A stretch of 64,000 bases of DNA from Patescibacteria group bacterium (GTDB lineage: Bacteria; Patescibacteriota; Microgenomatia; UBA1400; PJMF01), in NCBI GenBank assembly GCA_018830045.1, contig JAHJTF010000020.1:4667-68666 (forward strand), read 5' to 3'. Of this stretch, positions 1 to 17,412 are shown piece by piece (position 1 is the first letter of the stretch; each line of letters begins with the position of its first letter). Under the pieces are notes generated by a model that was not told where the DNA came from, searched no databases, and worked only from the letters and a program-made list of their open reading frames with translations. The position numbers were made by a program, and so were the translations under genes.

Positions 1-44
1 TTATTGCTAATCTATCTGAAATTGCCAAGCCCTTAACTCAGGCA

Positions 45-1316
45 ATGAGCCAAAGTAAAAGAGAGACAGAGATTTTTGAAGACCACGCCTACTGTGATCG
101 TTTTGTTTGGGCAGATGATGATCGACGTGTTTTGGTGACTCCGTTTCCGCTTGATCCTCAATTTTTCCAAGATGCTAATACCTTGCTTGATTTTAGACAT
201 GTCATCAATCTTTATCCACAGAAAATTAACGGCTCGATTTGTCATACAATTCTTAATGAAGATCGCCAGCTCCTGCAACAAATAATAAGTATTATTAAAG
301 ACAATCCTGGAATTAAAATTACTTCATATGCTGCTACCACAGAATTTTTAGAACTAGTGACTTACTTACAAAAACAAGGTCTATTAATTGTTACTCCGGA
401 AACTCCAACCAATGCTGATCAATGGGTGAGTAGTTTTGTGGATAGCAAAACAGGTTTTCGTCAAACCTGGGCACAGCTTAATGGTCAACTCCCACCTATG
501 CCAGAAGGAGCTATCTGCCGCCAACAAGAAGAACTGCTAGGTTGGTCTAAACATCTCTACCACCAACATCAGGGCATAGTTTTAAAAATTAATCGTGGCT
601 TAGCGGGTGAAGGAATAATTATTATTAATCAACCAAATTTGAATGATGATCAATTAGAAAAAATTATTAAAGAAAATAGTACTCAACTATATTGGTCTCA
701 AGACATGGTGGTGGTAGAAGAATATATTGCTCCTAATATTAGTGTTGCTGGTGGATTTCCTAGTATTGAGTTTCAAATTACTCAAGGGCAAACTAGCTAT
801 TTATATGTGTGTGGCATGAGAATCAATCCCCAAGGTGTTTTTATGGGTATGGAAATTGGTAAAGGCGCGATCGATGGTAGAATCGAAAAAACTTTGGTTA
901 AATACGGTCGAAAATTTGCCCGACATCTAGCCGAACTTGGATATCAGGGTTTCTTTGATATTGATTGGGTTTACAGCCAAGATCATGACTACTATCCTCT
1001 AGAGGCTAATTTACGCCGCACTGGGGGTACTCATGCTTACGAGCTTGCTACAAGGATTTTAGGAGATGACTTTGATGAAAAGTTTTATTTAATTTCCCAA
1101 AATAAAATCCAGGCACCTAAATTAAGTGGTTTAAGCTATCAGCAAGTAAAAAGTACGTTAAAGACGTTGTTATTTCCAATCAACAACAAGCAAGAAGGTG
1201 CCATTATCACCATGATGAACTATCTCACCAAAGGATGGTTTGGATATGTAATAATCGCCAACAAGAAACAGAGGGCTGAGGCAATAGAAAAAAACCTACT
1301 GGCAAACTTGCAGTAG
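45..1316 (+). CDS. Hypothetical protein with a possible ATP-grasp-like C-terminal half (GIVLKINRGLAGEG..., ...EANLRRTGGT)
   Basis: Long ORF in the six-frame track. Weak motif resemblance to the ATP-grasp fold only. Confidence 0.35.
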   Translation: MSQSKRETEIFEDHAYCDRFVWADDDRRVLVTPFPLDPQFFQDANTLLDFRHVINLYPQKINGSICHTILNEDRQLLQQIISIIKDNPGIKITSYAATTEFLELVTYLQKQGLLIVTPETPTNADQWVSSFVDSKTGFRQTWAQLNGQLPPMPEGAICRQQEELLGWSKHLYHQHQGIVLKINRGLAGEGIIIINQPNLNDDQLEKIIKENSTQLYWSQDMVVVEEYIAPNISVAGGFPSIEFQITQGQTSYLYVCGMRINPQGVFMGMEIGKGAIDGRIEKTLVKYGRKFARHLAELGYQGFFDIDWVYSQDHDYYPLEANLRRTGGTHAYELATRILGDDFDEKFYLISQNKIQAPKLSGLSYQQVKSTLKTLLFPINNKQEGAIITMMNYLTKGWFGYVIIANKKQRAEAIEKNLLANLQ

Positions 1317-1374
1317 ATTCTTTGAGTTACTCTATTGTGCCAGCAAATTTAGCTTTTCAACGAGATAACTTTAG

Positions 1375-1448
1375 TAGCAGGGGTGGGATTCGAACCCACG
1401 ACCTTCGGTTTATGAATCCGGTGCTCTAGCCAGCTGAGCTACCCTGCC
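1375..1448 (-). tRNA. tRNA with anticodon CAT (Met or Ile2/lysidine type); no encoded CCA
   Basis: The reverse complement reads GGCAGGGTAGCTCAGCTGGCTAGAGCA-CCGGA-TTCATAA-ACCGA-AGGTC-GTGGGTTCGAATCCCAC-CCCTGCT-A. The D-arm and T-arm (GTTCGAATC) are canonical, the acceptor stem is 7 bp with a G1-U72 wobble, and the anticodon loop is T-T-CAT-A-A. Confidence 0.6.
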
Positions 1449-1482
1449 GGGAGGCAGATATGCCTGCCTTGAAAGGCTATTA

Positions 1483-1516
1483 TAAACCAAAAGCGACCCC
1501 GATTGGAGTCGCTTTC
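1483..1516 (-). terminator. Rho-independent terminator downstream of groEL
   Basis: Inverted repeat aaagcgacccc/ggagtcgcttt. On the minus-strand transcript it is followed by a T-rich run (plus-strand aaaccaaaa). Confidence 0.5.
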
Positions 1517-1549
1517 TTAATTTACTTTCTAAAGCCCTTTTTCTTATCC

Positions 1550-3500
<1,951 letters not shown>

Positions 3501-3634
3501 AGAACTCCTTTGATTGTTAATAATATTTTTATTACTAATTGACCATTGGTCAACTGTGCTAGCAATCGTAACCATAGATTGCTAATTTGTCAATTGCGAA
3601 AATTGCGAAAATTGGGTTGCGAAAATTGTGGTAA

Positions 3635-4276
3635 TTATTGCGTTTTTTCTGATATGGGCTCAACGACTTCTTCTGGTTTGTCTTCTTGTTTAAACACTGT
3701 CTCGGCTTTACCACTTTTATCCAAAACCCGAACTTGCGAGAGTAAAAACCCCTCGCAATTGAGTCCTTTGTCTTGAAAATATTTATTCAGGTCTTCTTTA
3801 GCCAACCCTTCAATTTGATTACGGTCCTTTTTAATTTGATCTAAACTTAAGCTGCTAAAAACACTTGAAATCCGGCTACGAGAATAGGGTCGTACCACCT
3901 TAGAAACTAGATTTTCTCCCAGGTTTTCCCAAAGTTCGGGGGCATTATCGCGGTCAATCCTAAATAACACTGAGCCTTCAATTTGAATATCTTTGCCATC
4001 GCTGGTAGAAGTTCTAATTGGCTCATCGCCCAAAGCTTCTTTATTAACCGAAATATCAAAGCCCTTACTGATCGAGTACTCCAAAATTTGCGAATTAAAT
4101 AACTTAGCTACCTGCCAAAAAGGAATCTTGAGATGTAAGCCCGGACCCCACACCCGAGGTAAAACACCCCGGCCACGATCATATACGCAAGCCACATGTC
4201 CAGGCGGCACTGAAATAAAGAAGCCACCCACGACTTCATCAACCAAAAATGAAACAACAAGTTTATCAAAGTCCAT
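3635..4276 (-). CDS. SPFH/band-7 (prohibitin/HflC-like) domain protein
   Basis: 213 aa. The composition and motifs resemble the SPFH family. The call is by family resemblance only. Confidence 0.5.
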   Translation of the reverse strand: MDFDKLVVSFLVDEVVGGFFISVPPGHVACVYDRGRGVLPRVWGPGLHLKIPFWQVAKLFNSQILEYSISKGFDISVNKEALGDEPIRTSTSDGKDIQIEGSVLFRIDRDNAPELWENLGENLVSKVVRPYSRSRISSVFSSLSLDQIKKDRNQIEGLAKEDLNKYFQDKGLNCEGFLLSQVRVLDKSGKAETVFKQEDKPEEVVEPISEKTQ

Positions 4277-4361
4277 ATTTAAGTATTGTACAAGTATTTA
4301 TTAGTTTCTGCCAACTTAGAGAATTGAAAGCAGAGAGTTGAGAGTTGGGAGTTGAGAGTAT

Positions 4362-4721
4362 TTAACCCGCAAGACGCTGGCCTCCAGTCATCAATCCATT
4401 CAGAGTATTTACTAACTCTCTTAACTCGGTCACGCAAGTAATGGTTTCTTGGAGTGCATCCTGATCTAATGACACTTCATCTAAGACATTAAACATATCG
4501 TGAGTTAGGCTATCCATAAACCTATGAAGAAATTTTTGGTTATCTTTTACCCACGCTCGTTGTTGATTTTTTGGCAATAAAGTCACATTCTGGAGTGAAT
4601 CTGTGATTTGTTTAATTTCTCGAGTCATTAAAAACAAATCAAACTTAAAGACCTCGTTATCATCTTCATAGCTATCAGAGAAAGAAAGATTAAAATTAAA
4701 ATCAGGAATTGTATCTGTCAT
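4362..4721 (-). CDS. Hypothetical protein
   Basis: 119-aa ORF, divergent from the tsaC-tsaE gene. No recognisable motifs. Confidence 0.3.
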   Translation of the reverse strand: MTDTIPDFNFNLSFSDSYEDDNEVFKFDLFLMTREIKQITDSLQNVTLLPKNQQRAWVKDNQKFLHRFMDSLTHDMFNVLDEVSLDQDALQETITCVTELRELVNTLNGLMTGGQRLAG

Positions 4722-4786
4722 ATCGTGAGTGGACTAATTATACAGCCCTGAGCAATTTTGCACAGCCAGGATATAATACTCTCCAA

Positions 4787-5878
4787 ATGAAAACTCTAGA
4801 TAAAATGAAAATTTTAGATATTGTCAAAACTCCAGAGAAAGAAGTAATTAATACTACAGTTAAGGTATTGGGTGCTGGTGGTCTAGTGATCTTTCCTACA
4901 GAAACTGTTTATGGCGCCGGGGTAGATGCGACTAATCAAACAGCGGTGGATAAGCTTCTAGCTTATAAATCCCGGCGTGAGGGCAAACCACTCTCAATCG
5001 CCGTACCAGATCAACAAACCGCGGCTAAATTTGTACAAATTAATGACCAGGCCAACAAACTCTTTCAACGCTTTCTTCCTGGCCCAGTCACTGTGGTTTC
5101 AAAAGGCTTAAATAAAGTCGCCAAAGGCGTAGAGTCTGAATTTGGTACTTTAGGGGTGAGAATTCCCGATCACGCCCTGGTGATCAAAATTTTAATCGCT
5201 TTTGGAAAACCAATTACTGCCACTTCTGCTAATGCCTCTGGCAAGAAACGCCCTTACTGCGTGGCCGACATTTTTGGCAGTCTTTCACACAAACAGCAAC
5301 GCCTGATTGATCTGGTACTGGATGCAGGCCAGTTGCCTCCCAACGAGCCCTCCGCAGTCATTGATACGACTTTCTCTACACCTACGACTCTGCGGGCGGG
5401 GAAAATTAAGACAGCTGGTAAAAAACCTCTCATTTCTCACTCTGAAGATGAAACTAAAAAAATTGCCGGTACCTTAATGCTTAAACACTGGGATCAGATC
5501 AAAGAATCAGGTTTAATCATCGGACTAAATGGTCCACTAGGAGCCGGAAAAACTATTTTTACTAAGGGCGTGGGTGATTTTTTGCGCATTGCAGACACCA
5601 TCACTTCTCCGACTTACTCTTATATTGCAGAGTATGATTATCAGCGCCATGGAGTGAAGGGTAAGCTCTATCACCTTGACCTATGGAAAATTGACACCAA
5701 AGAAGAACTGGAGAGATTAGAAATAGAAAAGTTAATTGCACCTCACAATGTTGTTGCGATCGAATGGTGGGAACAAAATCAGGAGTATTTTAAAAAAATA
5801 ATCAAGAAAAAAGCGGCTACTTTACTCACAATTTTACTTGAAGAAAAAAGCGATCAATCAAGAAAAATTATGATTTAA
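4787..5878 (+). CDS. Fused L-threonylcarbamoyladenylate synthase (TsaC/Sua5, YrdC domain) and TsaE (YjeE P-loop ATPase)
   Basis: The N-terminal half carries YrdC motifs (GGLVIFPTETVYGAGVDATN). The C-terminal half carries TsaE motifs (GLNGPLGAGKTIFTKGV, SPTYSYIAEY, LYHLDLWKI). The start was chosen at MKTLDKM and could lie up to 26 codons upstream. Confidence 0.6.
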   Translation: MKTLDKMKILDIVKTPEKEVINTTVKVLGAGGLVIFPTETVYGAGVDATNQTAVDKLLAYKSRREGKPLSIAVPDQQTAAKFVQINDQANKLFQRFLPGPVTVVSKGLNKVAKGVESEFGTLGVRIPDHALVIKILIAFGKPITATSANASGKKRPYCVADIFGSLSHKQQRLIDLVLDAGQLPPNEPSAVIDTTFSTPTTLRAGKIKTAGKKPLISHSEDETKKIAGTLMLKHWDQIKESGLIIGLNGPLGAGKTIFTKGVGDFLRIADTITSPTYSYIAEYDYQRHGVKGKLYHLDLWKIDTKEELERLEIEKLIAPHNVVAIEWWEQNQEYFKKIIKKKAATLLTILLEEKSDQSRKIMI

Positions 5879-6468
5879 AAATAATTCTTAACTAAAATAT
5901 GGGTGTTTTGGACAAAGTATGCTTTTACCTTCTTCCACTGGTTATCTATAATCTCCACTCTCTCTGATAACTCTTCTGCATCAGTAAAATATACTAAGGA
6001 CTTAAATATATGAGGCAAATAACTTTCATCCCGCCCATATTTTTTTTGATTTAACTTCAATAACTTTTCCAAATCATAGTCATCTAACTGACAGATGGTG
6101 TAAAGATCAAAAAAATCTCTCTTAAAACCCCTACTTAAAATAGCCTCTAGCTTCATAGCTCCAATATCTGCCACTGAGGCAATTGGTAAACCCTGAAACT
6201 TAATTGGTTTTTCTAGCAACGGATATTGATAATAAAACAAACTTAACTCAGTATTTTGAGAAATACCATAAATTGTCTGCCAAGAAGTAGAAGTAAGTTG
6301 AAAATCAGGAATTTTTTGCTCCAAGAGCTGAAGGTAGAGCTGAGCCTCAAACTCCTGAGGTGAATAAAGATCAAGATCAAAAGACCGCCGATGATTAAGA
6401 TGCAAAGCCAATGCCGTACCGCCAGCCAAATAAGTATTTGGAGGCAAAAGTGGCACTAATAAGCCCAT
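5875..6468 (-). CDS. AbiEii/AbiGii-family nucleotidyltransferase toxin (type IV TA)
   Basis: Contains GGTALALHLNHRRSFDLDLY, characteristic of the DUF1814/AbiEii family. The start was placed at the internal Met (MGLL...) to limit overlap with the upstream ORF. The six-frame ORF extends to 6546. Confidence 0.55.
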   Translation of the reverse strand: MGLLVPLLPPNTYLAGGTALALHLNHRRSFDLDLYSPQEFEAQLYLQLLEQKIPDFQLTSTSWQTIYGISQNTELSLFYYQYPLLEKPIKFQGLPIASVADIGAMKLEAILSRGFKRDFFDLYTICQLDDYDLEKLLKLNQKKYGRDESYLPHIFKSLVYFTDAEELSERVEIIDNQWKKVKAYFVQNTHILVKNYF

Positions 6469-6764
6469 GAGCTCTTGGGTGTGCGCTGAGATTTGAGCTG
6501 TAAACATCTCACTTCCTTTCTGGAAATATGAAAATATCCAGTCCAAAAATTGACATCTTTTTCCTTTAGTTGTGCGGAAGTTTTAACTACTTCAATAATA
6601 TCTTGCTGTTGATACACTTCTAGCATCCACCGCCAAGCATCTAAAGTAGCATTCTTTAAAAAACTACTAATAATATATTTTTTATCCCGCCCCGCATCTA
6701 GATTTTTAACTTCAGAACTTGGGAGAAGAGGTTGAAATTTTTGAGGCACTGATAGCACCAGCAT
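6456..6764 (-). CDS. Putative cognate antitoxin (AbiEi-like?) or hypothetical protein
   Basis: 102-aa ORF immediately upstream of, and overlapping, the AbiEii gene. It is shorter than typical AbiEi proteins. The call is by position only. Confidence 0.3.
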   Translation of the reverse strand: MLVLSVPQKFQPLLPSSEVKNLDAGRDKKYIISSFLKNATLDAWRWMLEVYQQQDIIEVVKTSAQLKEKDVNFWTGYFHISRKEVRCLQLKSQRTPKSSWAY

Positions 6765-6873
6765 ATTATACTAAAAACACCATACATTGGTTGGTACAGA
6801 TTAAAAATGGCCAAACCCTAACCCTAATAGTTATTGAATGGGCGAGGGTGAAAGGCGGAGAAATTTTCCATAA

Positions 6874-7749
6874 TTATTTAAGATTAGCTTGATAAATGTC
6901 GAATGTTTCTTGATTAATTCTACCGTTGTCTAGCATTTTTTGGATAGTAGTTTGAATGTTTGGATATTCATGAGGTAGTTGCTGAATGATTCTAAATAGA
7001 TTGGTTCTTTTTTGGTGAAAATCCACATGGACTTTTGGCTGATCATTGGCTGCAATAGGGATAAAACCAGTCAAACTAAACCCCGGAATTTGAGTAGACT
7101 CAGCAACTAGATAAGCATTCCCCTGGAGAACATGAAAAGTATCTGACTGCAAAACGGTATAGGAAGTAAATTCTTCCATAGTACCAAAGGAGATTTTAGC
7201 GCCAGTTAAACGATGGTGTTGACTGATTAAGCTAGCCATGTCTCTAGGAGAGAGATGCTGGTCTTCTCGGTGAAGATCAGGGTTTAGGTAAAGAATTAAA
7301 GGGATGTTTCCAGTGGCATCTAGGACAGCTTGGATTTTTTTCTGAGGTGGTTGTGATCCACCAAAACAAGGAACCAATACTAAAGCTTGAGCACCTGATT
7401 CCTCAGCAAACTTAGCTAACTCAATAGTATTTTTGAGAGTATCAGAGGAAATTCCGACTAAGAGGTTAAGTTCTGCTGGGGCTGTTTCAGTTGCAGTTTG
7501 AATGACTTGTTTTTTTTGGTCTTGTGACAAGAATAAAAAACCACCGGCGTTACCAAGAAGAAAGACTGATCTGATACCGTTTTGAAATTGAAAGCCAAGA
7601 TTAATAGTTAATTGTTGGGTGTCGATTCCAAAAGACTCTGGTTCACCAATGAGAGGAGTAACCATTGGAGTGATTGGACCGTTGGGAATGTAACCAATGG
7701 TTTCTTTTTTTCTTCCTACTTCTACTACGGGCTGTTCTTTGAATGTCAT
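6874..7749 (-). CDS. Dihydrodipicolinate synthase / N-acetylneuraminate lyase family (class I aldolase) protein, divergent
   Basis: The N-terminal GPITPMVTPL, LLGNAGGF and LVLVPCF resemble the DapA-family fold. The start was chosen at MTFKEQ because the upstream extension of the ORF overlaps an IS fragment. Confidence 0.45.
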   Translation of the reverse strand: MTFKEQPVVEVGRKKETIGYIPNGPITPMVTPLIGEPESFGIDTQQLTINLGFQFQNGIRSVFLLGNAGGFLFLSQDQKKQVIQTATETAPAELNLLVGISSDTLKNTIELAKFAEESGAQALVLVPCFGGSQPPQKKIQAVLDATGNIPLILYLNPDLHREDQHLSPRDMASLISQHHRLTGAKISFGTMEEFTSYTVLQSDTFHVLQGNAYLVAESTQIPGFSLTGFIPIAANDQPKVHVDFHQKRTNLFRIIQQLPHEYPNIQTTIQKMLDNGRINQETFDIYQANLK

Positions 7750-7782
7750 ATCTTTCGGAGTGGGAATGAATTTGATTGCATA

Positions 7783-8507
7783 CCTAAAATGTACATTGGT
7801 AAACAATCTAGATCAAGAAGCGGTCAGTGTCATCGAAGAATAGCAATCGAGCTTAGTCTTGGCAAAAAGCGAGTTAGAAGATGCATGCAGTTGTTTGGCA
7901 TTAAGCCATACAAAAGAAAATCTAGATGGAGAAAAAGACGAGACGAAAGAAAAGCTCCAGCACCGTTTGCAAATCAGATTAAGAACCAATGTCCAATACA
8001 GCCAAATATAACTTGGATTGGCGATTTCACGTACTTGCCATTCAAGGGTAAATCCTCTACTTAGCCACCTTCATGGATTTATTTACCAGAGAGATTGTTG
8101 GTTGGCAGATTTCCAGCAAACACGACAAAAACTTAGTGATAAAAGCCTTTTTAGATGGTGTAATGAACAGAGATTTACAGAAACCAACTTACATTCACAC
8201 CGATCAAGGCTCTGAATACACCAGCCAAGATTACACCAAACTAGTACAGGATTTTGGTGTGACTATTTTGATGAGCACCAAATCTTCGCCTTGGGAAAAT
8301 GGATTTCAAGAATCGTTTTACAACAACTTCAAAACTGACTTGGGATTAGAATTTGACCGCTTCGAAAACGAGGATCATTTCCTAGGAGAAATTCACTACA
8401 CACTTCACAATTATAATCACAACAGAATCCACTCAGCACTCAAAATGCCGCCTGCAAAATTCCACGCCAACTATTTAGAAACTGTGTGCAAAAAAAGGGG
8501 TGCTTGA
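7783..8507 (+). pseudogene. Decayed IS3-family transposase (orfB fragments, frameshifted and N-terminally truncated; no orfA)
   Basis: Two ORFs in different frames (7612..8064 C-terminal part and 8073..8507) together align to the intact orfB at 10021..10818 (…NITWIGDFTYLPFKGK… / …HTDQGSEYTS…SPWENGFQESF…RIHSALKMPP…). The rve integrase core signature is present. Confidence 0.6.
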
Positions 8508-8520
8508 CATATTTTATTGA

Positions 8521-9123
8521 TTATCCGACTGTAAACATCATATCTATCACATTCATGCCACCCTTATCCTTGAAGTTGCCTAATTGCTTGAAGCCATTTT
8601 TCTCATAATATTTTATCGCTCTCTGATTATCAGCAAAAACTCCACCCCACAGTATTATTCGTCGTCGTCCAAATTGACGAGCAACGCTAACTACGTGAGG
8701 AAAAAGCGTACTTCCCACACCATGATTCTGGTAGTGGTCTGAGAGGCAAGGGCCAATTCTACAATCAGTTGATGAGGCTGATTTGATACCGTAGCTAGAA
8801 AAACGATCGATATCGTTCTGCGGAATATCGAAATCGAACTCGAAGAGAGCGATGATATTGTTTATTGTTCCAGAATGAACAACAAAACGCAACTTATCAT
8901 AACGATTGATTGAGCCACACATCTCTTTTGCTGACGAAACATCGTAGCCACCAAGGCTGTAAAACTCTCTTGTTGCAAAAGATAAGTTACCTAGAAAAAT
9001 GGCGAGACTAGAACAATCGCTAGCAGTAAGCGGACGGAACACAACCTTCTCTCCTGAAGATAGAAGTGATTCAAAAGTTAGAAGTTTGGGATCGGCAAAT
9101 ACCTGAGAAAGAGTAAGAGGCAT
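8521..9123 (-). CDS. GNAT-family N-acetyltransferase
   Basis: 200 aa with the acetyl-CoA-binding motif region (QNHGVGSTLF…NQRAIKYYEKNGF). Confidence 0.7.
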   Translation of the reverse strand: MPLTLSQVFADPKLLTFESLLSSGEKVVFRPLTASDCSSLAIFLGNLSFATREFYSLGGYDVSSAKEMCGSINRYDKLRFVVHSGTINNIIALFEFDFDIPQNDIDRFSSYGIKSASSTDCRIGPCLSDHYQNHGVGSTLFPHVVSVARQFGRRRIILWGGVFADNQRAIKYYEKNGFKQLGNFKDKGGMNVIDMMFTVG

Positions 9124-9150
9124 AATTTAATAATAACTCAATATATCATT

Positions 9151-9175
9151 TAACGTTGCGTGTATCTGATGTTGC
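9151..9175. repeat. Solo left arm of the structured IR-element family (TTAACGTTGCGTGTATCTGATGTTG)
   Basis: Matches the left terminus of the elements at 9226 and 12346. No matching right arm follows. Confidence 0.5.
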
Positions 9176-9225
9176 CGCGAGATATAATGATTGTACATCC
9201 TTAAAGAGTGAAGGATAATTTCGCC

Positions 9226-9340
9226 TAACGTTGCCTGTATATCTGATGTTGGGTACGGGGATAATTTTAGCATGGACGTGCTAGTCTCCGTACCCAATAT
9301 GGGTCGAGCGACAGCCGGAGCGAGCCAGATATACAGTAGT
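9226..9340. repeat. Structured inverted-repeat element (copy B), MITE-like or attC-like
   Basis: The outer IR ctgtatatctg (9235-9245) is the exact reverse complement of cagatatacag (9327-9337). An inner stem gggtacgggg/ccgtaccc is also present. The left terminus GCCTAAC fits the attC inverse-core consensus RYYYAAC. Confidence 0.55.
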
Positions 9341-9372
9341 TGTACGAGGGTGAGCGAGAAAAATAAAATGGA

Positions 9373-9660
9373 TTACTCGGATTTTTCGAGCGAAAGCGTA
9401 GCGTCCCCTTGAGTTGATTCATCCATTACAGGGATTGGTTCAGCAAGCCGTTCTACTAATATGCCAAGAAGTTGTTTTTGCAAATCGGGAGATTGCGCGG
9501 TACCGTGGATAAGCCACGAGACAAAATCATGGGCTTCGAGAGGATCCTGCCTAAGATAGGCAACACCAGAGTCGTAATCTCCATCAAAAAGAACCTTCTT
9601 GGCGGCCTCAATTGTGGCTGGGTTGGGTTGTGCTGTTTCAGTCGGTTTCGGTATGTCCAT
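9373..9660 (-). CDS. Hypothetical protein
   Basis: 95-aa ORF between the IR elements and the intact IS3 copy. No recognisable motifs. Confidence 0.3.
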   Translation of the reverse strand: MDIPKPTETAQPNPATIEAAKKVLFDGDYDSGVAYLRQDPLEAHDFVSWLIHGTAQSPDLQKQLLGILVERLAEPIPVMDESTQGDATLSLEKSE

Positions 9661-9725
9661 AGAGTTATTGTAATTGACCCGCCCCCTTTAAACTAAGACA
9701 AGTTTCTAAGTTAAAATAACGACAC

Positions 9726-9992
9726 TTGAAAAGGGGTGGGATTATGTTTTCAAAAATCCCGAAAGAGAAAAAGGAAGAGATCTTAGCCAAAGTTAAGGCT
9801 GGAGAAAAAGTGGCGACTCTGGCCTCCCAGTATGGGATCAGTGACAGAACTATCTACTTTTGGCTTCGCTTAGATACCAAGGAAGAGGTAATATCTATCC
9901 TCAAGTACAACAAACTCAAGAGGGAGTGCGAAGAGCTAAAACGCTTAGTCGGAGAACTCACTCTTAACATGAGTTTGGGGAAAAAAAGTTGA
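9726..9992 (+). CDS. IS3-family transposase OrfA (HTH)
   Basis: 88 aa (…ATLASQYGISDRTIYFWLR…) with a coiled-coil tail. It lies immediately upstream of orfB. Confidence 0.65.
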   Translation: MKRGGIMFSKIPKEKKEEILAKVKAGEKVATLASQYGISDRTIYFWLRLDTKEEVISILKYNKLKRECEELKRLVGELTLNMSLGKKS

Positions 9993-10020
9993 GCTAGTCA
10001 AACATGCTAAGATCAAAACT

Positions 10021-10818
10021 GTGGTGGCTACTGCTGTTGGAATCTCTCGCAAGGACATCTATCGCCAGCCTAAGCTGCCAGAGAAAGATAGAGTCTTAGT
10101 TGAGGCTATCAAGGAGGCCTTTACTCTCCACCCTGCATATGGCCAATACAAGATAGCACTCCATCTGAAGGTGAACCATAAACGAGCTGAACGAGTGATG
10201 AAAGAGAATGGTCTCAAAGCTCCCAGGAGGAAAACCAAGTACTTCTGTACCGTCTCAACCTATCACCACACCTATACCAACCTCATCAAAGAGATCCTAG
10301 AAAGTGAGTTTGTTCCACACCTGATTTGGGTTTGCGATGTCTCGTATTTCAAATTCAAAGGAGAGATGTGGTACCTAGCAAGCATTGAGGACTTGGCCAC
10401 CAGGCAGATCCTCTCCTCCCAAATCGGCAAACACCATGATGCTAATCTAATCATCTCAACCATCAAACAAGCTATCCAATTGACTGATTATCTTCCCAAA
10501 TACTTCCATACCGATCAAGGCAAGGAGTTTATGGCCAAAGTGGTGACTGATTATCTGGAGTTGCAGGGAGTGAAAGTCTCCGTCTCGGCCAAAGCCTCTC
10601 CTTGGCAGAACGGCTACAAGGAAAGTTTCTTTGGACACTTCAAAGATGAGTTTGGCGAGATTAACCGATTTGATTCTGTGGGACTACTAATAGAGGAGAT
10701 CTATTCCCAAATCCACTACTACAATTTTGATCGTATCCACCGCTCGCTCAAAATGTCACCGGTACAATTTGCCACCCTTCATTTCCCAGAATATTGTCTT
10801 CACAAACGGGGGGCTTGA
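10021..10818 (+). CDS. IS3-family transposase OrfB (integrase core domain)
   Basis: 265 aa (…HLIWVCDVSYFKFKG…HTDQGKEF…SPWQNGYKESF…RIHRSLKMSP…), the rve DDE signature. The frame may extend upstream to allow a programmed frameshift fusion with orfA. Confidence 0.8.
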   Translation: MVATAVGISRKDIYRQPKLPEKDRVLVEAIKEAFTLHPAYGQYKIALHLKVNHKRAERVMKENGLKAPRRKTKYFCTVSTYHHTYTNLIKEILESEFVPHLIWVCDVSYFKFKGEMWYLASIEDLATRQILSSQIGKHHDANLIISTIKQAIQLTDYLPKYFHTDQGKEFMAKVVTDYLELQGVKVSVSAKASPWQNGYKESFFGHFKDEFGEINRFDSVGLLIEEIYSQIHYYNFDRIHRSLKMSPVQFATLHFPEYCLHKRGA

Positions 10819-10929
10819 CAGTTCATTGCCAAATATGTGACTTAGCCATACAGAATTAGCCATACATCTTGATATTTCTTCTTTGCCAGATATACTACGG
10901 ATATTAAAATATTTTAGAAAATATTATCA

Positions 10930-12180
10930 ATGGCTGTTTCTGTAGAGCTCAAACGAGCATGGCGTGAATTTAGGAAAGAACACACAGCTCCTATTTACTC
11001 AAGAGAGGCGCAGTTAGCTATGGGAGATTGGGCCGGAGGATTGGCTCAAGGATTATTAAGTACTGAAGTCTTAGGATTTATTGGGAATAAAATAACTCAA
11101 TCGAATAAAAAATTATATAAGCGAATAGTCGAAAAACAAGGACAAGTGCGAATTGATGTTCAACGAGATGGTAACTTTCGAGTGAATCCACAAGCAATCA
11201 CAGATACAAGTCTTCCCAGATATCTTTTAAGAAAACCAGATGTAATCCCGTCGGTGATAAATGATCTAATCGTTTCACCTGAAGTCATAAAAGACACATT
11301 GGTTAAACAAGCAACAAGGATAACTTTTGGAGAAAAAACAGCACCTTCTGAAGTTACTTCAGATCAAATTGGAATGCTTGCGCAAGCCGTCTTGGGATTA
11401 GCTATTGAAGCCAAAATTAATCTAAGAGATTTGCAAACAGCAACGAGTAGTAACCCAGGAAAAAAACAAAGTTTAACAGAAAGCGTATTTAAAATTCCAT
11501 TTGATGAATTTTTTATTCCAGAAAAAGTAGTGAGCGGATGTCTTTTTGATGAAGAGAAAGGTGTTTATACCGACACTCGAGGAAGAGAACATCATTTAAC
11601 TATCAACAGCCAAGGAGAAACTTTTGTTTTAGTGAAAGGTGTAGGCGGGAGATATTATTTTAAAACAATTAATGGTCAAGATACCACCGTATTAAGAGAA
11701 ACAGCTTTAGGATTAGAACAAAAACTAATATCGAAAAGAGAATTTATTCATTTATCAAATATTAGAGAAAGAAGAGCACCAGAATCAAGATTAAATTCTT
11801 TAATGACAAATATGGGTGATTTTGTGTTTAACGTTTTTCAAACTGTAGCTAATGGAAGAAATAGAATAAATGTCATCAGAAGATTGACTCAGTTCCTTAC
11901 AGGTTCTAGAGAAATACGGATAACGCCTGATCATCGAGGACTATTTATGCATAAAGGACGAATAATAAAAACATTTACATATCCCCATATTGGACAATTA
12001 AATTGGTTGGAAGGTAATCAATATACTAATGAAAGTGAGACCCCCGTTGATGTATCAGGCATTGAATTAACAGTCACAGAAAATATTCTTACTCGTTTAA
12101 GAGATTTAATCTGGGAAATGCTTAACAAAAATGCTTCATCTGTAAAAGTGGGTGAAACATCACTATCCGCCGCAGATTAA
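10930..12180 (+). CDS. Hypothetical protein (orphan cargo gene in the island)
   Basis: 416-aa ORF with no recognisable motifs. It is followed 170 bp downstream by IR-element copy C and a terminator. Confidence 0.4.
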   Translation: MAVSVELKRAWREFRKEHTAPIYSREAQLAMGDWAGGLAQGLLSTEVLGFIGNKITQSNKKLYKRIVEKQGQVRIDVQRDGNFRVNPQAITDTSLPRYLLRKPDVIPSVINDLIVSPEVIKDTLVKQATRITFGEKTAPSEVTSDQIGMLAQAVLGLAIEAKINLRDLQTATSSNPGKKQSLTESVFKIPFDEFFIPEKVVSGCLFDEEKGVYTDTRGREHHLTINSQGETFVLVKGVGGRYYFKTINGQDTTVLRETALGLEQKLISKREFIHLSNIRERRAPESRLNSLMTNMGDFVFNVFQTVANGRNRINVIRRLTQFLTGSREIRITPDHRGLFMHKGRIIKTFTYPHIGQLNWLEGNQYTNESETPVDVSGIELTVTENILTRLRDLIWEMLNKNASSVKVGETSLSAAD

Positions 12181-12345
12181 TTCAATTTATACAAAGTAAT
12201 TTTCCGGAAAGTATCGTGCCTTATTCAGCCGATTATGTACCTCCATGATTTGTAAAACATCTCGAATTGTGTGATACACAGAAAAGAAGATTAAAGAGAA
12301 AAAGACAAACCGTATAGTTTTTGACATAATAGTTTTTTATTATTT

Positions 12346-12446
12346 CATCTAACGTTTGCGTATATCTGATGTTTTGCGAAGCGTAGCGGAGCAAAATATG
12401 GGTGGAGGCTCTGCAAGAGCCGTAACCAGATATACGCTGTTAGCTT
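12346..12446. repeat. Structured inverted-repeat element (copy C), MITE-like or attC-like
   Basis: The outer IR gcgtatatctg (12358-12368) pairs with cagatatacgc (12427-12437). Extended imperfect arms ctaacgtttgcg…/…cgctgttagc carry unpaired bases. Internal hairpins are ttttgc…gcaaaa and ggctct-gca-agagcc. The termini ATCTAAC…GTTAGCT fit the attC R''/R' consensus RYYYAAC…GTTRRRY. Confidence 0.55.
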
Positions 12447-12466
12447 GATGTAATTCTTTTCTTTTT

Positions 12467-12490
12467 CCCGACAGCAGTCGGGGTTGTTTT
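12467..12490 (+). terminator. Rho-independent terminator
   Basis: cccgac-agca-gtcggg stem followed by gttgtttt, downstream of the 10930..12180 gene and IR copy C. Confidence 0.45.
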
Positions 12491-12579
12491 AAAAATTTTC
12501 AAATTTCTTTTTCCGTTTTGGGCGAAGGGCAGAGGGGAATTAAAGGGGTGAATGCCCGAGCCCAAAACACCTTTGTCGT

Positions 12580-12834
12580 CTATTTTTTGATTTTGTTGAA
12601 CAATGCGGCAAACAACCAAACGGCAAGAATAGTCACGATGTTCCAGATAACTAAACCTGAAATAAAGTAACCGAAGTTAAGAAAATCTGACTTAAAAGAT
12701 ACATCGGTATGCAGGGAAAATCTCATAAATAGTTCTCTGCTTGGCGGGTAGATTGCTACGCCAGCAAAACAGATTGTATAAACAATGCTTACCCAAGCTG
12801 AAGCGACTTTTATCAAATGTTTTAAATTTATCAT
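12580..12834 (-). CDS. Small membrane protein (2 TM), hypothetical
   Basis: 84-aa hydrophobic ORF immediately downstream of the P-type ATPase on the same strand. Confidence 0.35.
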   Translation of the reverse strand: MINLKHLIKVASAWVSIVYTICFAGVAIYPPSRELFMRFSLHTDVSFKSDFLNFGYFISGLVIWNIVTILAVWLFAALFNKIKK

Positions 12835-12873
12835 ATTTTTTAAATTAATTAATTTAATTAAATTCGACCTTTA

Positions 12874-15054
12874 TTATTTTAGTGCTTTGTTTTTTAAAAG
12901 TACAGCATTGACGGCCACAATAATAGTACTTAAAGACATAAACACTGCCGCCAGTGCCGGTTGAAGCAGTATGCCTTTAAAAGCAAGCGCGCCGGCCGCG
13001 AGAGGCAAGGCGAAAATATTATATCCGGTTGCCCAAAAAAGATTTTGGATCATTTTTGAATAGGTCAGCTGGGACAACTTAATAATTTTAACAATATCCC
13101 GGGGATCATTTCTGACGAGAATGATCCCCGCTGACTCAATGGCAACATTGGTACCTGCGCCAATCGCGATGCCAAGGTCAGCCTGCGCCAAGGCCGGAGC
13201 GTCGTTAATGCCGTCACCGACCATCGCGACCCTTAAGCCCCGACCCTGCAATACCTTCACCTTTTCAGATTTTTCGTGAGGAAGTACCCTGGCAAAATAT
13301 TCATCGATGCCAAGCTCTTGGCTGACCCATTTTGCTACATCTTCGGAATCACCAGTAATCATCGTAGTTCGAATTCCGATATCCTTAAGTGCTTGTATTG
13401 CTTCACGGGACTCCTCCCTAATAATGTCGGCGAGAGCCAATGCTCCCAAAAGCACTTGATCTTTGACAATAAAAACGATTGTCTGTCCTTTTTTGCCGGC
13501 ACCCTGAACCTGTTTAGTAAGTTCAACGGGAATATTGATTCCTATACTTTCAAGAAGCGATGGGCCGCCCACCATAACCTCTTTTTCTTCAATAAACGCT
13601 TTTACTCCTTTGCCTTTCAATGCTTCAAACTTTTTTGGCTCCTTTAGAGAAAGTCCTTGTTCCTTAGCTTTCGCAACAATCGCTTTTGCAATTGGATGCT
13701 CCGACAGGGCATCGAGAGAAGCGGCTAATTCCAAAATTTCATCTTCAGTATGATTGCCGACACTCCACACCTCCACGACTCCGAATTCTCCCTTTGTAAG
13801 CGTTCCTGTTTTATCAAACAGCACCGTATCAATAGTACGAGCAGCTTCCAAAGCGATTCTCTGTTTTACAAGAAAACCATTCTGTGCCGCTTTTGTTGTA
13901 GAGATTGAAGCAACAAGAGGCACCGCAAGCCCCAACGCATGCGGGCAGGCGATTACAAGCACCGCTACAAGCCTTGCCACAGCAAAACTAATTTCCGCGC
14001 CAGTCGCAAGCCAAGCGATCAGAGTGATAATGCCACTTGTAACGGCGACGATAGTTAAATATAGGGCGGCTTTGTCTGAAAGAATTTGTAATCGTGATTT
14101 TGATGCTTGCGCTTCGGCAACTAATCGCATAACTCCAGCGAGAAAGGTTTTTTCGCCAATATTTGCAATGTTAATTTTAAGCGCTCCATCACCGTTTATG
14201 GTACCTGCAATGACAGAATCCCCGTCTTTTTTAGAAACCGGCTTTGATTCTCCGGTAACCATAGACTCGTTCACATTTGATTCGCCGTCTATTATTTTGC
14301 CGTCCGCCGGGATTTTGGCTCCGGGTCGTACGAGCACCACATCATTCTCACGAAGTTCAGAAAGAGGAATAGTTTCCGTTTTCCCATTGCGAATAATTTC
14401 GGCAGTATCGGGGAGCAATTTAGATAATTCTTTTAGCGCGCCTTGCGCGCCACTTACCGCGCGCATTTCAAGCCAGTGGCCGAGAAGCATAATGGTTATA
14501 AGTGTCGTAAGTTCCCAAAATAAGACTTCTTCACCGGCAAAAAACGCATAGATGCTCCAGAAATAAGCCGCTGAAATGGCAATACTTATAAGCGTCATCA
14601 TCCCGGGCAAGCGTGCTTGAATTTCTCGCCAAGCGCCAACGAGAAAAACCCAGCCGCCATAAAAAAATACAATTGAACCAAATATCAAGGGCATGTATGT
14701 TGATCCAGAAAATTCCGGCGGCGACCATTTAAAAATCTTTTCAATAACATCAGCGTACAATACCACGGGAATCGTGAGCATCAGACTTATCCAAAATTTT
14801 CTAAAAAACATTGCGGTGCTGTGGCCCGCGTGCCTGCCCGCCGTAGCTTTAGCGAAGGCTGGCCTACTTGCGGAATGATCATCATGAGGTGATTTTTTTG
14901 GGTCGCGCATAGAATGATCCATTTTCATTTCCATCCCCATCTCTTTTTTTATGAGAATGAGATTCATACCACATTCCGGACATATTCCAGGTTTATCCCA
15001 CTGTACCTCCGGATGCATAGGACAGGTGTAAAAATTTTTAATATTATTTGTCAT
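12874..15054 (-). CDS. Heavy-metal (copper) translocating P1B-type ATPase, CopB-like (CPH motif) with His-rich N-terminus
   Basis: Carries DKTGTLT, GDGINDAPAL and the transmembrane CPH motif (ACPHALGLAVP). The N-terminus has a Cys motif (CPMHPEV…CPECGM) and a His-rich stretch (DHSMRDPKKSPHDDHSASRP…HAGHS). Confidence 0.85.
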   Translation of the reverse strand: MTNNIKNFYTCPMHPEVQWDKPGICPECGMNLILIKKEMGMEMKMDHSMRDPKKSPHDDHSASRPAFAKATAGRHAGHSTAMFFRKFWISLMLTIPVVLYADVIEKIFKWSPPEFSGSTYMPLIFGSIVFFYGGWVFLVGAWREIQARLPGMMTLISIAISAAYFWSIYAFFAGEEVLFWELTTLITIMLLGHWLEMRAVSGAQGALKELSKLLPDTAEIIRNGKTETIPLSELRENDVVLVRPGAKIPADGKIIDGESNVNESMVTGESKPVSKKDGDSVIAGTINGDGALKINIANIGEKTFLAGVMRLVAEAQASKSRLQILSDKAALYLTIVAVTSGIITLIAWLATGAEISFAVARLVAVLVIACPHALGLAVPLVASISTTKAAQNGFLVKQRIALEAARTIDTVLFDKTGTLTKGEFGVVEVWSVGNHTEDEILELAASLDALSEHPIAKAIVAKAKEQGLSLKEPKKFEALKGKGVKAFIEEKEVMVGGPSLLESIGINIPVELTKQVQGAGKKGQTIVFIVKDQVLLGALALADIIREESREAIQALKDIGIRTTMITGDSEDVAKWVSQELGIDEYFARVLPHEKSEKVKVLQGRGLRVAMVGDGINDAPALAQADLGIAIGAGTNVAIESAGIILVRNDPRDIVKIIKLSQLTYSKMIQNLFWATGYNIFALPLAAGALAFKGILLQPALAAVFMSLSTIIVAVNAVLLKNKALK

Positions 15055-15400
15055 AATTTTATAGTTTAATTGTTGTTATTGCGTCTGTTTTTCCCTTATA
15101 AATAAATCGTTTTCGTAGCCCCGCATCGGGTGCGGGGTAAACTTCGCGGAGAAAACTCCTTATATTCCCCTTTATAAAAAAGAAAAACAAAATCGTATTC
15201 TTTTTAAGAGCTGGGGCGATAGCCCCAAAAGGAAAACATGTATTTCAGCTAACTCCTTTTTATACGAATATTCTTCGTTATAAAAACCAATTATTGTATT
15301 TTTTACGAAGTCTTGTTAAACTTGCACCCAAGTTATTGATCTCAAATTACAAATTATAGATATTATATTTTTACTCTTCACATTTTACCACAAACTCATC

Positions 15401-16219
15401 ATGAACATTCACAGCCAACTCACTTTAACCGAACAAGAATTACTGTTAAGAAATTATAGTTCTAAAACTATCTCCAGCTATTTATCTGCACTCAAAAAAT
15501 ACTTAGTCTTTAAACAAGCGCGACTTTATAAATTAGATCTGCAAAATATCAAAAAATTTCTTCTTCAAGCTCAAAAAAACCACCTTTCACCTCAAACTCG
15601 TAATTTGTATCTCAGTGTAATTAAATTTTATTATTATCAAGTCATCAAAAATACGCAAAAAATTGAGCTTAGATTTGCTAAAAAAGCCAGTAGTTTACCG
15701 GTGGTTCTTTCTAGAAATGAAGTTAAACAACTCCTGCAAAATACCCTTAACGTCAAGCATCGCTTAATGCTGGCGCTTAGTTATGGAGCTGGGTTGCGGG
15801 TGAGTGAAGCAATGAGCCTGCGGGTGAGAGATCTTGATCTTGATCAACTCACCATTCATCTCAAACAAGCCAAGGGCAGCAAAGATAGAATTACAGTTTT
15901 CCCTCAAAAATTATCTACTAAAATTCAAAACCTCATTGCTGGCAAAAATCATCATAATTTTGTTTTTGAGAGTGAACGCGGAGGTAAGCTCACCACGCGC
16001 ACCGCCCAACAAGTTTTTCAGCGCGCACGTCAAAAAGCCGGTATTAAAAAAAATGCCACCTTTCATAGCCTGCGTCACAGTTTTGCTACTCACTTATTAG
16101 AAAATGGTGTTGATGTGCGCTATGTCCAAGAACTGCTTGGCCATCAAAATATTCGCACCACCCAACGCTATACCCAAGTGACTAATCCGCAATTAAAAAA
16201 CATTATTAGTCCTCTATGA
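15401..16219 (+). CDS. Tyrosine site-specific recombinase (XerC/XerD-like)
   Basis: The C-terminus HSLRHSFATHLLENGVDVRYVQELLGHQNIRTTQRYTQV carries the R-H-R-Y catalytic signature. At 272 aa it is too short for an integron integrase. Confidence 0.8.
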   Translation: MNIHSQLTLTEQELLLRNYSSKTISSYLSALKKYLVFKQARLYKLDLQNIKKFLLQAQKNHLSPQTRNLYLSVIKFYYYQVIKNTQKIELRFAKKASSLPVVLSRNEVKQLLQNTLNVKHRLMLALSYGAGLRVSEAMSLRVRDLDLDQLTIHLKQAKGSKDRITVFPQKLSTKIQNLIAGKNHHNFVFESERGGKLTTRTAQQVFQRARQKAGIKKNATFHSLRHSFATHLLENGVDVRYVQELLGHQNIRTTQRYTQVTNPQLKNIISPL

Positions 16220-17412
16220 AACCTCAAGCCACCATCGCTCGCTCTCATTTATCCCCCCTTATTCTCGCTATCGACACCTCTTGCGACGACACCTCGGCGG
16301 CAGTAACTAGTGGCATCACTGTATTGTCAAATATTATTGCCTCCCAATCCCAACTCCATACTCCTTATGGCGGGGTTTTCCCCACCGTAGCCAAGCAAGC
16401 TCATCAAGAAAACATTGATCAAACTATCAAATTAGCCCTTAAACGCGCTGGGGCAGCATCATTTGGCGCTGGGACAGCATCATCTGGTGCTAGGATTGCA
16501 TCATTTGGCGCTGAGGTGGGGTGGGAGCAGATCCAAGCTATCGCAGTCACCCAAGGCCCAGGATTAGCACCAGCTCTAGAAGTAGGAATTGCCAAAGCCA
16601 AACAACTCGCTCTTAAACATAACTTACCACTCATCGCTGTCAACCATATTGAAGCCCATGCGCTTTCTCCACTCGCAAAGGCCAAACAACGAACATCCAA
16701 ACCCATCACTCCCAGCCACCACTTCCCAGCCCTTGCCATCGTCGTTTCTGGCGGTCATACCGAGTTTATAAAAGTTTCTCAGATTGGTGAATATCAACGC
16801 CTCGGCGCTACTATTGATGATGCTGCCGGTGAGGTTTTAGATAAGGTTGGCCGTATGTTAAATTTAGGTTATCCTGCTGGTCCAATCATAGAAAAATTTG
16901 CCCAAAATGGGGACAGGAAAAAACACTTAATTCCGTTACCCATGACAGACCGAGAAGATTTTAATATGAGCTTTAGTGGACTCAAGACTTGGGCCCGAAA
17001 TAAACTAGAAGAACTTGAGACCCAAAACTCACTTGATAGGCAAGGTGTTTATGACTTTACTGCATCATTTCAATACGGGGTGTTTAGGCATATTTGCTAT
17101 AAATTGAACAAACTGCTAAAAAAGCATCAAGTTGTCGAAGTCTGGCTGGGTGGCGGAGTCGCAGCTAACATCCAACTTAGACGAATGATACGCGAAACAC
17201 TCACGACCCATAGTCATAACTTTCTTTTGCCCAAAATTCAACTCTTAACCCCCTACACTAAACGCCTCTGCATGGACAACGCGGCTATGATTGGAATTAC
17301 TGCTAGTTTTCAATTTCAACAGCAAAAATTTGTCAAAAACATCAATGACTTAGAACGCAAACCCCATTGGGAAGTATCCAGTTGGAAAATTGGCAAATGC
17401 CTTGAAAACTAG
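16216..17412 (+). CDS. tsaD: tRNA N6-adenosine threonylcarbamoyltransferase TsaD (Kae1/Gcp family) with a low-complexity insertion
   Basis: Motifs ILAIDTSCDDTSAAV, HIEAHALS and VVSGGHTEF. The start overlaps the recombinase stop by 4 bp. Confidence 0.85.
   Translation: MKPQATIARSHLSPLILAIDTSCDDTSAAVTSGITVLSNIIASQSQLHTPYGGVFPTVAKQAHQENIDQTIKLALKRAGAASFGAGTASSGARIASFGAEVGWEQIQAIAVTQGPGLAPALEVGIAKAKQLALKHNLPLIAVNHIEAHALSPLAKAKQRTSKPITPSHHFPALAIVVSGGHTEFIKVSQIGEYQRLGATIDDAAGEVLDKVGRMLNLGYPAGPIIEKFAQNGDRKKHLIPLPMTDREDFNMSFSGLKTWARNKLEELETQNSLDRQGVYDFTASFQYGVFRHICYKLNKLLKKHQVVEVWLGGGVAANIQLRRMIRETLTTHSHNFLLPKIQLLTPYTKRLCMDNAAMIGITASFQFQQQKFVKNINDLERKPHWEVSSWKIGKCLEN
16451..16522 (+). repeat. In-frame 3x ~24-bp tandem repeat inside tsaD
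   Basis: gggcagcatcatttggcgctg / ggacagcatcatctggtgctag / gattgcatcatttggcgctgag, encoding AGAASFGAGTASSGARIASFGAE. Confidence 0.6.

Follow-up and report, generated by a model that had tools for sequence, protein, structure and literature searches.

How did a gene for a predicted copper ATPase, two insertion sequences (ISs) and a tyrosine recombinase gene come to lie side by side in a Patescibacteria genome? The question is raised by a 64-kb stretch of contig JAHJTF010000020.1 (assembly GCA_018830045.1), hereafter the window, whose open reading frames (ORFs) were scanned against Pfam and NCBIfam, with PHROGs and PADLOC used in addition. An earlier note, made from the sequence alone, had described an integrated or composite mobile island that delivers metal resistance, with two IS3 copies around part of its cargo and the recombinase at its end. 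The genes that it listed are all present in the ORF listing and the Pfam and NCBIfam matches, and its picture of an accessory stretch rich in mobile elements was borne out. The organization proposed here is a different one: with a probability of roughly 0.7, the region up to 16.2 kb, starting at 9.1 kb or possibly already at 5.9 kb, is a chromosomal platform for gene capture, sedentary and integron-like, of a kind typical of Patescibacteria.

According to the proposed mechanism, such a platform would comprise a conserved Xer-type gene (xer), a double-stranded attI-like site about 150 nt upstream of it, and an array of mostly single-ORF cassettes that are transcribed away from the recombinase gene and each end in an attC-like site. 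The strand complementary to the cassette ORFs would fold into a three-way junction, in whose basal stem NNNYAAC pairs with GTTRNNN, followed by a TTT bulge and a covarying stem of 10-11 bp. The recombinase, presumably the neighboring Xer-type protein, would exchange one strand at AA|C (= G|TT) between a folded circular cassette, probably in single-stranded form, and attI, and the product would probably be resolved by replication. With the exchange at the AA|C of attI, new cassettes would therefore enter at 15252|15253, and older ones would move distally. The cassette closest to the recombinase gene (cassette 1), which as a circle would carry the junction ...ATTTCAGCTAA|CGTTTGCG..., would deliver a CopB-type (CPH) copper ATPase together with a DUF5676 membrane protein. 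Two different IS3-family elements would have inserted later, at or next to attC-like sites, and the distal array would have become scrambled. A pairing of ATTTC with GAAAT in the folded circle was considered and proved wrong; ATTTC is unpaired.

The attC-like sites were recognized from two structured repeats in the window, whose folds reach z-scores of -5.3 (site 1) and -6.3 (site 2) against shuffled sequences (coordinates in Table 1). That structured repeats exist had been noted correctly, but their role as attC-like recombination sites of a cassette array had been missed. At its gathering score, Rfam matches only a tRNA-Met in the whole window; permissive Rfam scans over both repeat regions gave nothing, and a reading of CUGAUG... 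as a hammerhead or other ribozyme was rejected because the core does not fit. The motif ATTTC-NNNYAAC opens the attC-like sites and the xer-proximal site alike, and it recurs in the arrays of relatives on one strand and only upstream of xer; one relative (L020) holds seven attC-like sites plus the xer-proximal one. In total, 21 complete attC-like sites of about 80-195 nt were delimited. They share the architecture NNNYAAC-GTTT-(10-11-nt stem)-GAAGTT-(hairpin)-AATTTGGGYG-(hairpin)-AACC-(stem complement)-T-GTTRNNN, in which the junction motifs GAAGTT, AATTTGGG and AACC are near-invariant. Judged by their delimited ends, the compensatory changes in their stems and their excess of G.T pairs (see below), these sites display the features of integron attC sites: the order R''-L''...L'-R', RYYYAAC/GTTRRRY ends, and single-strand folding.

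RNAalifold folded ten short sites into a three-way junction made up of 28 base pairs; 15 of these show compensatory changes, and one G.T is invariant. The covariance model (CM) R1, built from these ten sites, gives site 1 a score of 91.1 bits (E 6e-22) and site 2 a score of 35.1 bits (E 1e-6), and these are its only matches in the window. Over 699 kb of related loci, it yields 52 matches, 47 of which lie on the strand reading toward xer; all 47 are upstream of xer, the sequence searched amounting to about 116 kb upstream and about 133 kb downstream of the gene. No match occurs in 184 kb of control sequence (other ATPase loci and non-CPR loci, CPR standing for Candidate Phyla Radiation), for which six non-CPR loci from a contig search with the recombinase protein served as negative controls; that search had yielded one CPR locus besides. 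In the paired columns of all aligned sites, G.T outnumbers A.C by 129 to 12, or by 39 to 12 when two invariant G.T positions are excluded. The folding strand is therefore the complement of the cassette ORFs, the "bottom strand" in integron terms.

Several further observations concern the sites themselves. The P2 hairpin of many of them repeats GCGAAGCGTAGCGGAGC. A miniature site at 9143-9200 keeps R''-L''...L'-R' and has lost P2 and P3, and its CM score is only 8.4 bits. Among 2.9 million IMG/VR "viral" contigs, the site motif was present in just two, L109 (4830-5611, plus strand) and L110 (9575-10505, minus strand), each with 3-4 attC-like sites spaced 270-340 nt apart (near-empty cassettes); the stretches examined in these two contigs contain no xer homolog.

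The position of the crossover can be read from the cassette ends. In 27 of 44 consecutive pairs of sites, the NNNY of the next site toward xer is the exact reverse complement of the four variable bases in the 3' GTTRNNN of the preceding site (28 of 44 with the corrected coordinate of the window attI-like site). Shuffled pairings gave a mean of 3.8 complementary pairs and a maximum of 12 in 10,000 trials, and the 3' variable bases rarely complement the 5' end of their own site. At the sequence level, this end complementarity is the classic integron signature and indicates a crossover at G|TT, the boundary of integron cassettes. With the crossover at AA|C (= G|TT), a cassette therefore carries its own R'' and a complementary hexamer at its other end. 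The ends of cassette 1 follow this rule (TTAGCT, 15252->15247 on the minus strand, versus AGCTAA), and its R'', AGCTAAC, is the reverse complement of 12439-12445. Delimiting this cassette as 12440-15252 proved wrong, the integron convention, with the attC included, giving 12353-15252.

Of 43 intervals bounded by neighboring sites, 34 have a longest ORF that is directed away from xer; usually the longest ORF covers 70-93% of its interval. The cargo of relatives includes cytidine deaminase, methyltransferase, VanW, HNH, isochorismatase, NUDIX, Fic, radical-SAM/SPASM and MBL-fold proteins, a typical accessory assortment. Cassette 5' leaders share non-coding motifs across cassettes and hosts, namely a TTAGCTGAAATA...TTTTGGGGCTATCGCCCC hairpin and AAGGGGAATATAAGGAGTTTTCTCCGC, which are seen at 15100-15250 in the window, at 3560-3700 in locus L106, and in the upstream regions of three further loci (L035, L039 and L048). 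They may represent cassette-borne promoters, ribosome-binding sites or regulatory elements.

On the recombinase side of the exchange, the attI-like site of the window consists of ATTTCAGCTAA|C, a box TTATACGAA (15260-15268), its inverted copy TTCGTTATAA (15274-15283) and a direct repeat TTTTACGAAGT (15301-15311). Corresponding sites occur 100-160 nt upstream of xer in 22 relatives, whose alignment gives the consensus ATTTCGnATAAC-TCGTTTTTATACGAA-(~28 nt)-ATATTGTATATTATACGAA-TATAAT. Conservation begins exactly at AAC, and left of it every genome differs: next to xer, the window has the ATPase, L006 a PhzF protein, L011 a HAD hydrolase and L106 a peptidase of family S51. Gene content diverges exactly at AA|C, so that by comparison with relatives the site beside xer would be the preferred insertion point, as attI is in integrons. 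The comparison with relatives by which the island boundaries were to be found does reveal a sharp right boundary, located at this AA|C, but it leaves the recombinase outside the variable part. Many independent assemblies end about 100-300 nt upstream of xer.

The inverted TTATACGAA/TTCGTTATAA boxes are found in the window and some relatives and are absent in others; in many lineages, direct repeats take the place of the inverted arm. No second copy of the full dif-like palindrome exists in the window. A single consensus match that could act as a Pc promoter reading into the array lies on the minus strand (TTAACA-18-AATAAT, 15319->15290), the number of promoter-like matches in the region being that expected from shuffled sequence. 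The conserved box TATACGAAGT (15260-15270, and in relatives) is identical to the core of the loxP arm (ATAACTTCGTATA / TATACGAAGTTAT), which could be a coincidence or a shared recognition theme.

A trace of movement between slots is provided by the ATPase. The protein has a CPH motif (VIACPHALG), DKTGTLT, an HMBD N-terminus and a His-rich linker, and it scores 591 bits against the Cu-ATPase model TIGR01511 (cutoff 397). By these sequence features it falls in the P1B-3 (CopB-type) group, with predicted specificity for copper. In locus L106, from another sample and another organism, an ATPase 84% identical to it is encoded in the order xer, attI-like site, peptidase-S51 cassette, attC-like site, ATPase+DUF5676 unit. 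This unit and that of the window share 78% nucleotide identity over 2.8 kb, and the homology starts exactly at G|TTAGCTGAAAT, beyond which stands attI in the window and an attC-like site in L106. Comparison of the two loci thus demonstrates the same cassette in slot 1 of the window and slot 2 of L106, indicating movement between slots. The view of the copper ATPase as mobile cargo was confirmed in this respect, the unit moving alone as a 2.9-kb cassette. Homologs about 80% identical occur in three other loci (L099, L101 and L103), which are ordinary Cu/redox loci without attC-like sites; because close homologs sit outside arrays, the ATPase has been captured as a cassette in some lineages only. 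Across CPR classes (Azam-, Pace-, Sung-, Doudna- and Kaiserbacteria), the ATPase family is 76-90% identical, versus 63-74% for the core Xer protein, which suggests frequent transfer within the CPR.

Two hairpins lie directly 3' of the DUF5676 gene (12464-12581), the second of which, GTTTTGGGCGAAGGGC...GCCCGAGCCCAAAAC, resembles the P2/P3 part of attC-like sites. It is conserved in L106 and scores 12.4 bits (E 0.3) with the CM, and it may be the relic of a fused cassette or a terminator.

The recombinase is the only tyrosine recombinase within the window. Its stop codon overlaps the tsaD start (16216) by 4 bp, a coupling kept in relatives, and the order xer-tsaD-hypothetical-RNR-NrdR (RNR, ribonucleotide reductase) is conserved rightwards in the nearest relatives. 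Homologs 63-74% identical to it occur across many CPR lineages. By this comparison it is a core, syntenic Patescibacteria gene; the functional link to the region that the earlier note had assumed is retained, but the gene is not cargo at the end of an island. Its best NCBIfam match is XerA_Arch (212.5 bits, just below the cutoff of 220), followed by the integron-integrase model TIGR02249 (209 bits in two pieces, cutoff 265), while XerC (183 bits) and XerD (178 bits) remain far below their cutoffs. When the Protein Data Bank (PDB) was searched with a profile of 27 family members, the integron integrase VchIntIA (2A3V) ranked first with 188.8 bits in two stretches, query 9-178 aligning with IntI 10-182 and query 195-270 with IntI 242-317; the XerA structures 4A8E and 5HXY reached 179 and 171 bits, and XerD 109 bits. 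The recombinase has 16 aa where IntI has 59, in the region of the I2 additional domain. An AlphaFold model (pLDDT, the predicted local distance difference test score, 74.9, low in residues 143-186) retrieved 2A3V first with Foldseek, the 272 residues being aligned over 320 columns at 31% identity, and XerA next; the model has no helix between residues 178 and 198, where confidence is low. Because VchIntIA tops both the profile and the fold searches, with 16 aa replacing 59, the recombinase is regarded, on sequence and model, as IntI-like but lacking I2. Its architecture is the simple combination of core-binding (CB) and catalytic (CAT) domains of the Xer clade, without the additional domain specific to IntI. 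Xer-related recombinases of candidate phyla have been grouped as the "Cand" subgroup and viewed as Xer substitutes (Smyshlyaev 2021, PMC8138268), and the recombinase appears to be the kind of enzyme which that subgroup covers, going by its description.

A distant locus, L055 (5506-13588), carries two xer paralogs (6035-6808 and 10016-10789) that are 36-39% identical to the window protein. Its geometry differs, with attC-like sites on the opposite strand and about 450 nt upstream of each paralog.

Table 1. Features of the putative gene-capture region and its flanks (positions in the 64-kb window).
Feature	Position	Strand	Basis or remark
Sua5/TsaC-TsaE fusion	4787-5878	+	start ATG 4787
AbiEii-like toxin (nucleotidyltransferase)	5875-6546	-	Pfam and PADLOC
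DUF6922 partner	6456-6764	-	Pfam and PADLOC
DHDPS-family (DapA-like) protein	6874-7749	-	Pfam
Second IS3-family remnant (5'-truncated, frameshifted orfB)	~7795-8507	+	rve domains, three-frame translation
GNAT acetyltransferase cassette	8521-9123	-	Pfam Acetyltransf_1
Degenerate miniature attC-like site	9143-9200	+	motif match TAACGTTGCGTGTATCTGATGTT, read by eye, weak
attC-like site 2 (long P2 hairpin variant, crossover 9228|9229)	9218-9345	+	CM R1, fold
95-aa cassette ORF	9373-9660	-	ORF listing; attC-like site 2 lies 28 nt downstream
Full-length IS3-family element	9675-10820	+	NCBIfam transpos_IS3, TG...CA ends
Orphan 416-aa ORF (ORF416)	10930-12180	+	ORF listing
attC-like site 1 (three-way junction, crossover 12352|12353)	12342-12445	+	CM R1, fold
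Cassette 1 (leader, Cu ATPase, DUF5676, hairpin or attC relic, own attC-like site)	12353-15252	-	complementary ends, L106 homology
Hairpin or attC relic within cassette 1	12464-12581		
DUF5676 two-transmembrane protein	12580-12834	-	
CopB-type P1B Cu ATPase	12874-15054	-	CPH motif, HMBD, NCBIfam
attI-like site (crossover 15252|15253)	15242-15311	+	conserved in 22 aligned relatives
Xer-type tyrosine recombinase, 272 aa	15401-16219	+	Pfam Phage_integrase and SAM-like N domains
tsaD	16216-17412	+	start overlaps recombinase stop

Only cassette 1 is intact in the array of the window, and the part beyond it bears the marks of the two ISs. An IS3-family fragment and a full-length element are indeed present, as had been described, both with the rve DDE domains of that family, but their transposases share 40% amino acid identity and no DNA-level repeat exists between them. 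Because of this low identity, the two are not copies of one IS. The remnant is truncated and has a frameshift near position 8060. The full element (185 bits with transpos_IS3, cutoff 160) resembles the IS3 family in its orfA (9726-9992) and orfB (10021-10818), its TG...CA ends, and the A-run at the orfA/orfB junction. It differs in that orfB lies in the +1 rather than the -1 frame relative to orfA, across an A7 run (GGGGAAAAAAAG, 9975-9992), which could reflect transcriptional slippage, an inactivating indel or an assembly error, and in that no 3-bp target-site duplication is seen at its ends, the flanks being AAT and GTT. It is inserted 14 nt upstream of the 95-aa ORF, for which PHROGs and PADLOC returned nothing, and an orphan L'-like 11-mer, GCCAGATATAC, stands to its right at 10885-10895.

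The interval 9229-12352, in which ORF416 lies in reverse orientation, lacks complementary ends (GTTGTAC versus ATCTAAC). ORF416 has no Pfam, NCBIfam, PHROG or PADLOC match. Together, the failed complementarity, ORF416, the IS3 element and the orphan 11-mer point to a site lost by IS-associated rearrangement. Further left, the leader of the GNAT cassette starts with G|TTAAAT (9154), and the expected position of its 3' attC is occupied by the truncated second IS. A stretch GGGCGAGG at 6840-6860 was considered as a relic and is too weak to claim. The segment 5875-7749 is identical in two other samples and may belong to the array as its distal end or represent the flank that originally bordered it. 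Same-species contigs assembled from other samples agree with the window at 99.9-100% identity, the distal part (1-9704) being fixed, and break at four places: 9704 (L107), 30 nt into the IS; 9326, inside attC-like site 2; 12313, beside attC-like site 1; and 15218, in the conserved leader of cassette 1. Breaks at precisely these elements are consistent with sequence that is repeated or polymorphic there.

At the far end of the variable region, the 3' end of the AbiEii-like gene overlaps tsaE by 4 bp, and no attC-like site is attached to it. Toxin-antitoxin pairs are known stabilizers of chromosomal integron arrays. Genes for t6A tRNA modification flank the array on both sides, the Sua5/TsaC-TsaE fusion on the left and tsaD on the right.

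The integrated or composite island of the earlier note, bounded by IS3 elements or equipped at its right end with an integrase of its own, and delivering metal resistance as one block, is very improbable as an explanation. It would account for the presence of IS3-family elements, an accessory ATPase and a recombinase, and compositional outliers do exist, namely the full IS3 (GC content at third codon positions, GC3, 0.52-0.53, z about 4) and ORF416 (GC3 0.20, z -2.8). However, the same IS does not stand twice around the cargo as in a composite transposon, one of the two different ISs being truncated, and a search for direct repeats flanking 7.8 kb and 16.2 kb found none beyond chance. The recombinase is core and syntenic, and the ATPase unit travels by itself. 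The ATPase, said to be of visibly higher GC, is not anomalous at 0.45 (z=1.7), matching the core genes tsaD (0.453) and RNR (0.438). The 5' region of the DapA-like gene had appeared to be disrupted by the IS fragment or to overlap with it. With its most likely start, ATG 7749, the gene is clear of that fragment, and two other assemblies annotate a product of 291 aa. Still less credible is a dispersed element of the repetitive extragenic palindrome (REP) or miniature inverted-repeat transposable element (MITE) kind, or an RNA element such as a terminator or small RNA, with the variability upstream of xer attributed to an unrelated recombination hot spot. Stable folding and a position at gene 3' ends would agree with it; the lack of an Rfam match, the restriction to two copies in 64 kb, both in the array, and a folding strand that is antisense to the cassette mRNAs would not, and the complementary ends and precise cassette boundaries show a DNA crossover at AA|C. 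Both the composite-island and the pure RNA/REP-element models are essentially excluded.

The main rival, a Xer/dif hot spot, is unlikely as well, although several features speak for it. Here the recombinase would be just a housekeeping dimer resolvase with dif beside its gene, and the cassettes would resemble integrative mobile elements exploiting Xer (IMEX) or "dif modules" that use it for double-strand recombination, the folds being incidental or serving another role. A dif site has two inverted arms of about 11 bp around a 6-8-bp spacer, lies at the replication terminus and is acted on at cell division. The recombinase shows strong conservation, is of Xer/XerA type and lacks I2, and the "Cand" subgroup is treated as Xer substitutes (PMC8138268); some relatives (L007) have a perfect 18-5-18 palindrome at the site, its inverted arms resembling those of dif, and ATTTCGCCTAA and TTATACGAAGT, spaced by 7 nt, match as inverted repeats at 8 of 11 positions. 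Yet the boundary between variable and conserved sequence falls at the outer AA|C, not at the palindrome center, many lineages have direct repeats instead of an inverted arm, and the central regions of attI-like and attC-like sites differ. Double-strand recombination also leaves the covariation of the three-way junction and the G.T asymmetry unexplained, and no GC-skew inflection marks the locus within 64 kb, which is weak evidence. The integron-like platform has points against it, too. The recombinase is a presumed catalyst at these sites; a canonical IntI could be encoded elsewhere, 64 kb of the genome being in view; and the unusual conservation of the recombinase and its operon with tsaD are what a housekeeping Xer would show. 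I2 has been reported as necessary for cassette capture by IntI (PMC7790495). A classical two-strand reaction is possible, given the likeness between the 5' half of each attC-like site and a double-stranded core site, and the covariance-model alignments behind the G.T asymmetry are fitted to, and lean toward, the modeled strand. In addition, the L055 sites lie on the opposite strand, and a CM search with filters off for attC-like relics left of 9143 gave nothing convincing.

A broader proposal can be made tentatively, at a little under even odds: the system would be a natural integron of Patescibacteria, in which an I2-less, conserved "Cand" Xer, possibly doubling as the dimer resolvase of the cell, takes up cassettes in folded, single-stranded form at an attI beside its own gene. 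Either this would be the long-sought intermediate or ancestral stage in the evolution of integrons, or cassette capture would have been invented independently; it would also be a main route by which ultra-small bacteria exchange genes. The ability of integron integrases to recombine single-stranded attC is attributed to the I2 helix. Escudero et al. described I2 as necessary for cassette capture and present in no other protein, with intermediates lacking (PMC7790495), and work on the origin of integrons notes the same lack (PMC7790495, PMC4792948). A natural I2-less system would bear on which features of sites and protein suffice for one-strand exchange and would make the origin of integrons testable. 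The platform would also mark a general hot spot at which accessory genes, here for copper export, enter and leave CPR genomes, and explain why CPR assemblies frequently break just upstream of xer. Such platforms would escape surveys that require the C-terminal signature of IntI, or would be recorded there as arrays without an integrase. The literature searched yielded no account of integrons or attC arrays in the CPR; an earlier description outside the searchable literature is possible.

Among known systems, Xer/dif and IMEX share with the platform a simple CB+CAT enzyme without I2 and, as for XerS and XerH, a site beside the recombinase gene. There is also precedent for Xer enzymes acting on a folded single-stranded substrate with exchange of one strand, in the integration of the single-stranded DNA hairpin of CTX-phi by XerCD (discussed in PMC7790495). 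Xer systems differ in having no many-cassette arrays, no structured site for each cassette, no off-center crossover, and no serial insertion at one site.

The pdif modules of Acinetobacter plasmids, small resistance or accessory gene modules bounded by Xer-type sites, also bear a likeness to the CPR cassettes. They differ in having inverted double-stranded XerC/D sites on plasmids and are not known to have folded attC-like structures, an attI or a single growth point.

The comparison with integrons was made with the IntI/attI/attC system, with sedentary chromosomal integrons such as the Vibrio superintegron, and with archaeal integrons (PMC9668308). The CPR recombinase differs from IntI in lacking the I2 domain that defines the latter; it is a member of an Xer-like clade that is highly conserved in the CPR, and its gene forms an operon with tsaD. 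The CPR sites have a conserved three-way junction and a TTT bulge that replaces the classic extrahelical G and T, and they keep ATTTC 5' of the cleavage point; the CPR attI has repeated TTATACGAA boxes. Shared with integrons are a recombinase gene divergent from co-oriented, mostly single-ORF cassettes and an insertion site beside that gene; cassette-borne imperfect palindromes with RYYYAAC...GTTRRRY ends, and a G|TT crossover at which the 5' hexamer of a cassette complements its own R''; a folding asymmetry favoring the strand complementary to the ORFs; sites that are more alike within arrays; accessory cargo and IS invasion at attC; and a recombinase whose best solved match is VchIntIA. The system is not filed as an integron sensu stricto because the recombinase lacks the additional domain of IntI; judged from sequence, it appears to work like an integron as regards its attC-like sites, the cassette boundaries at G|TT, the insertion next to attI and the layout of the array.

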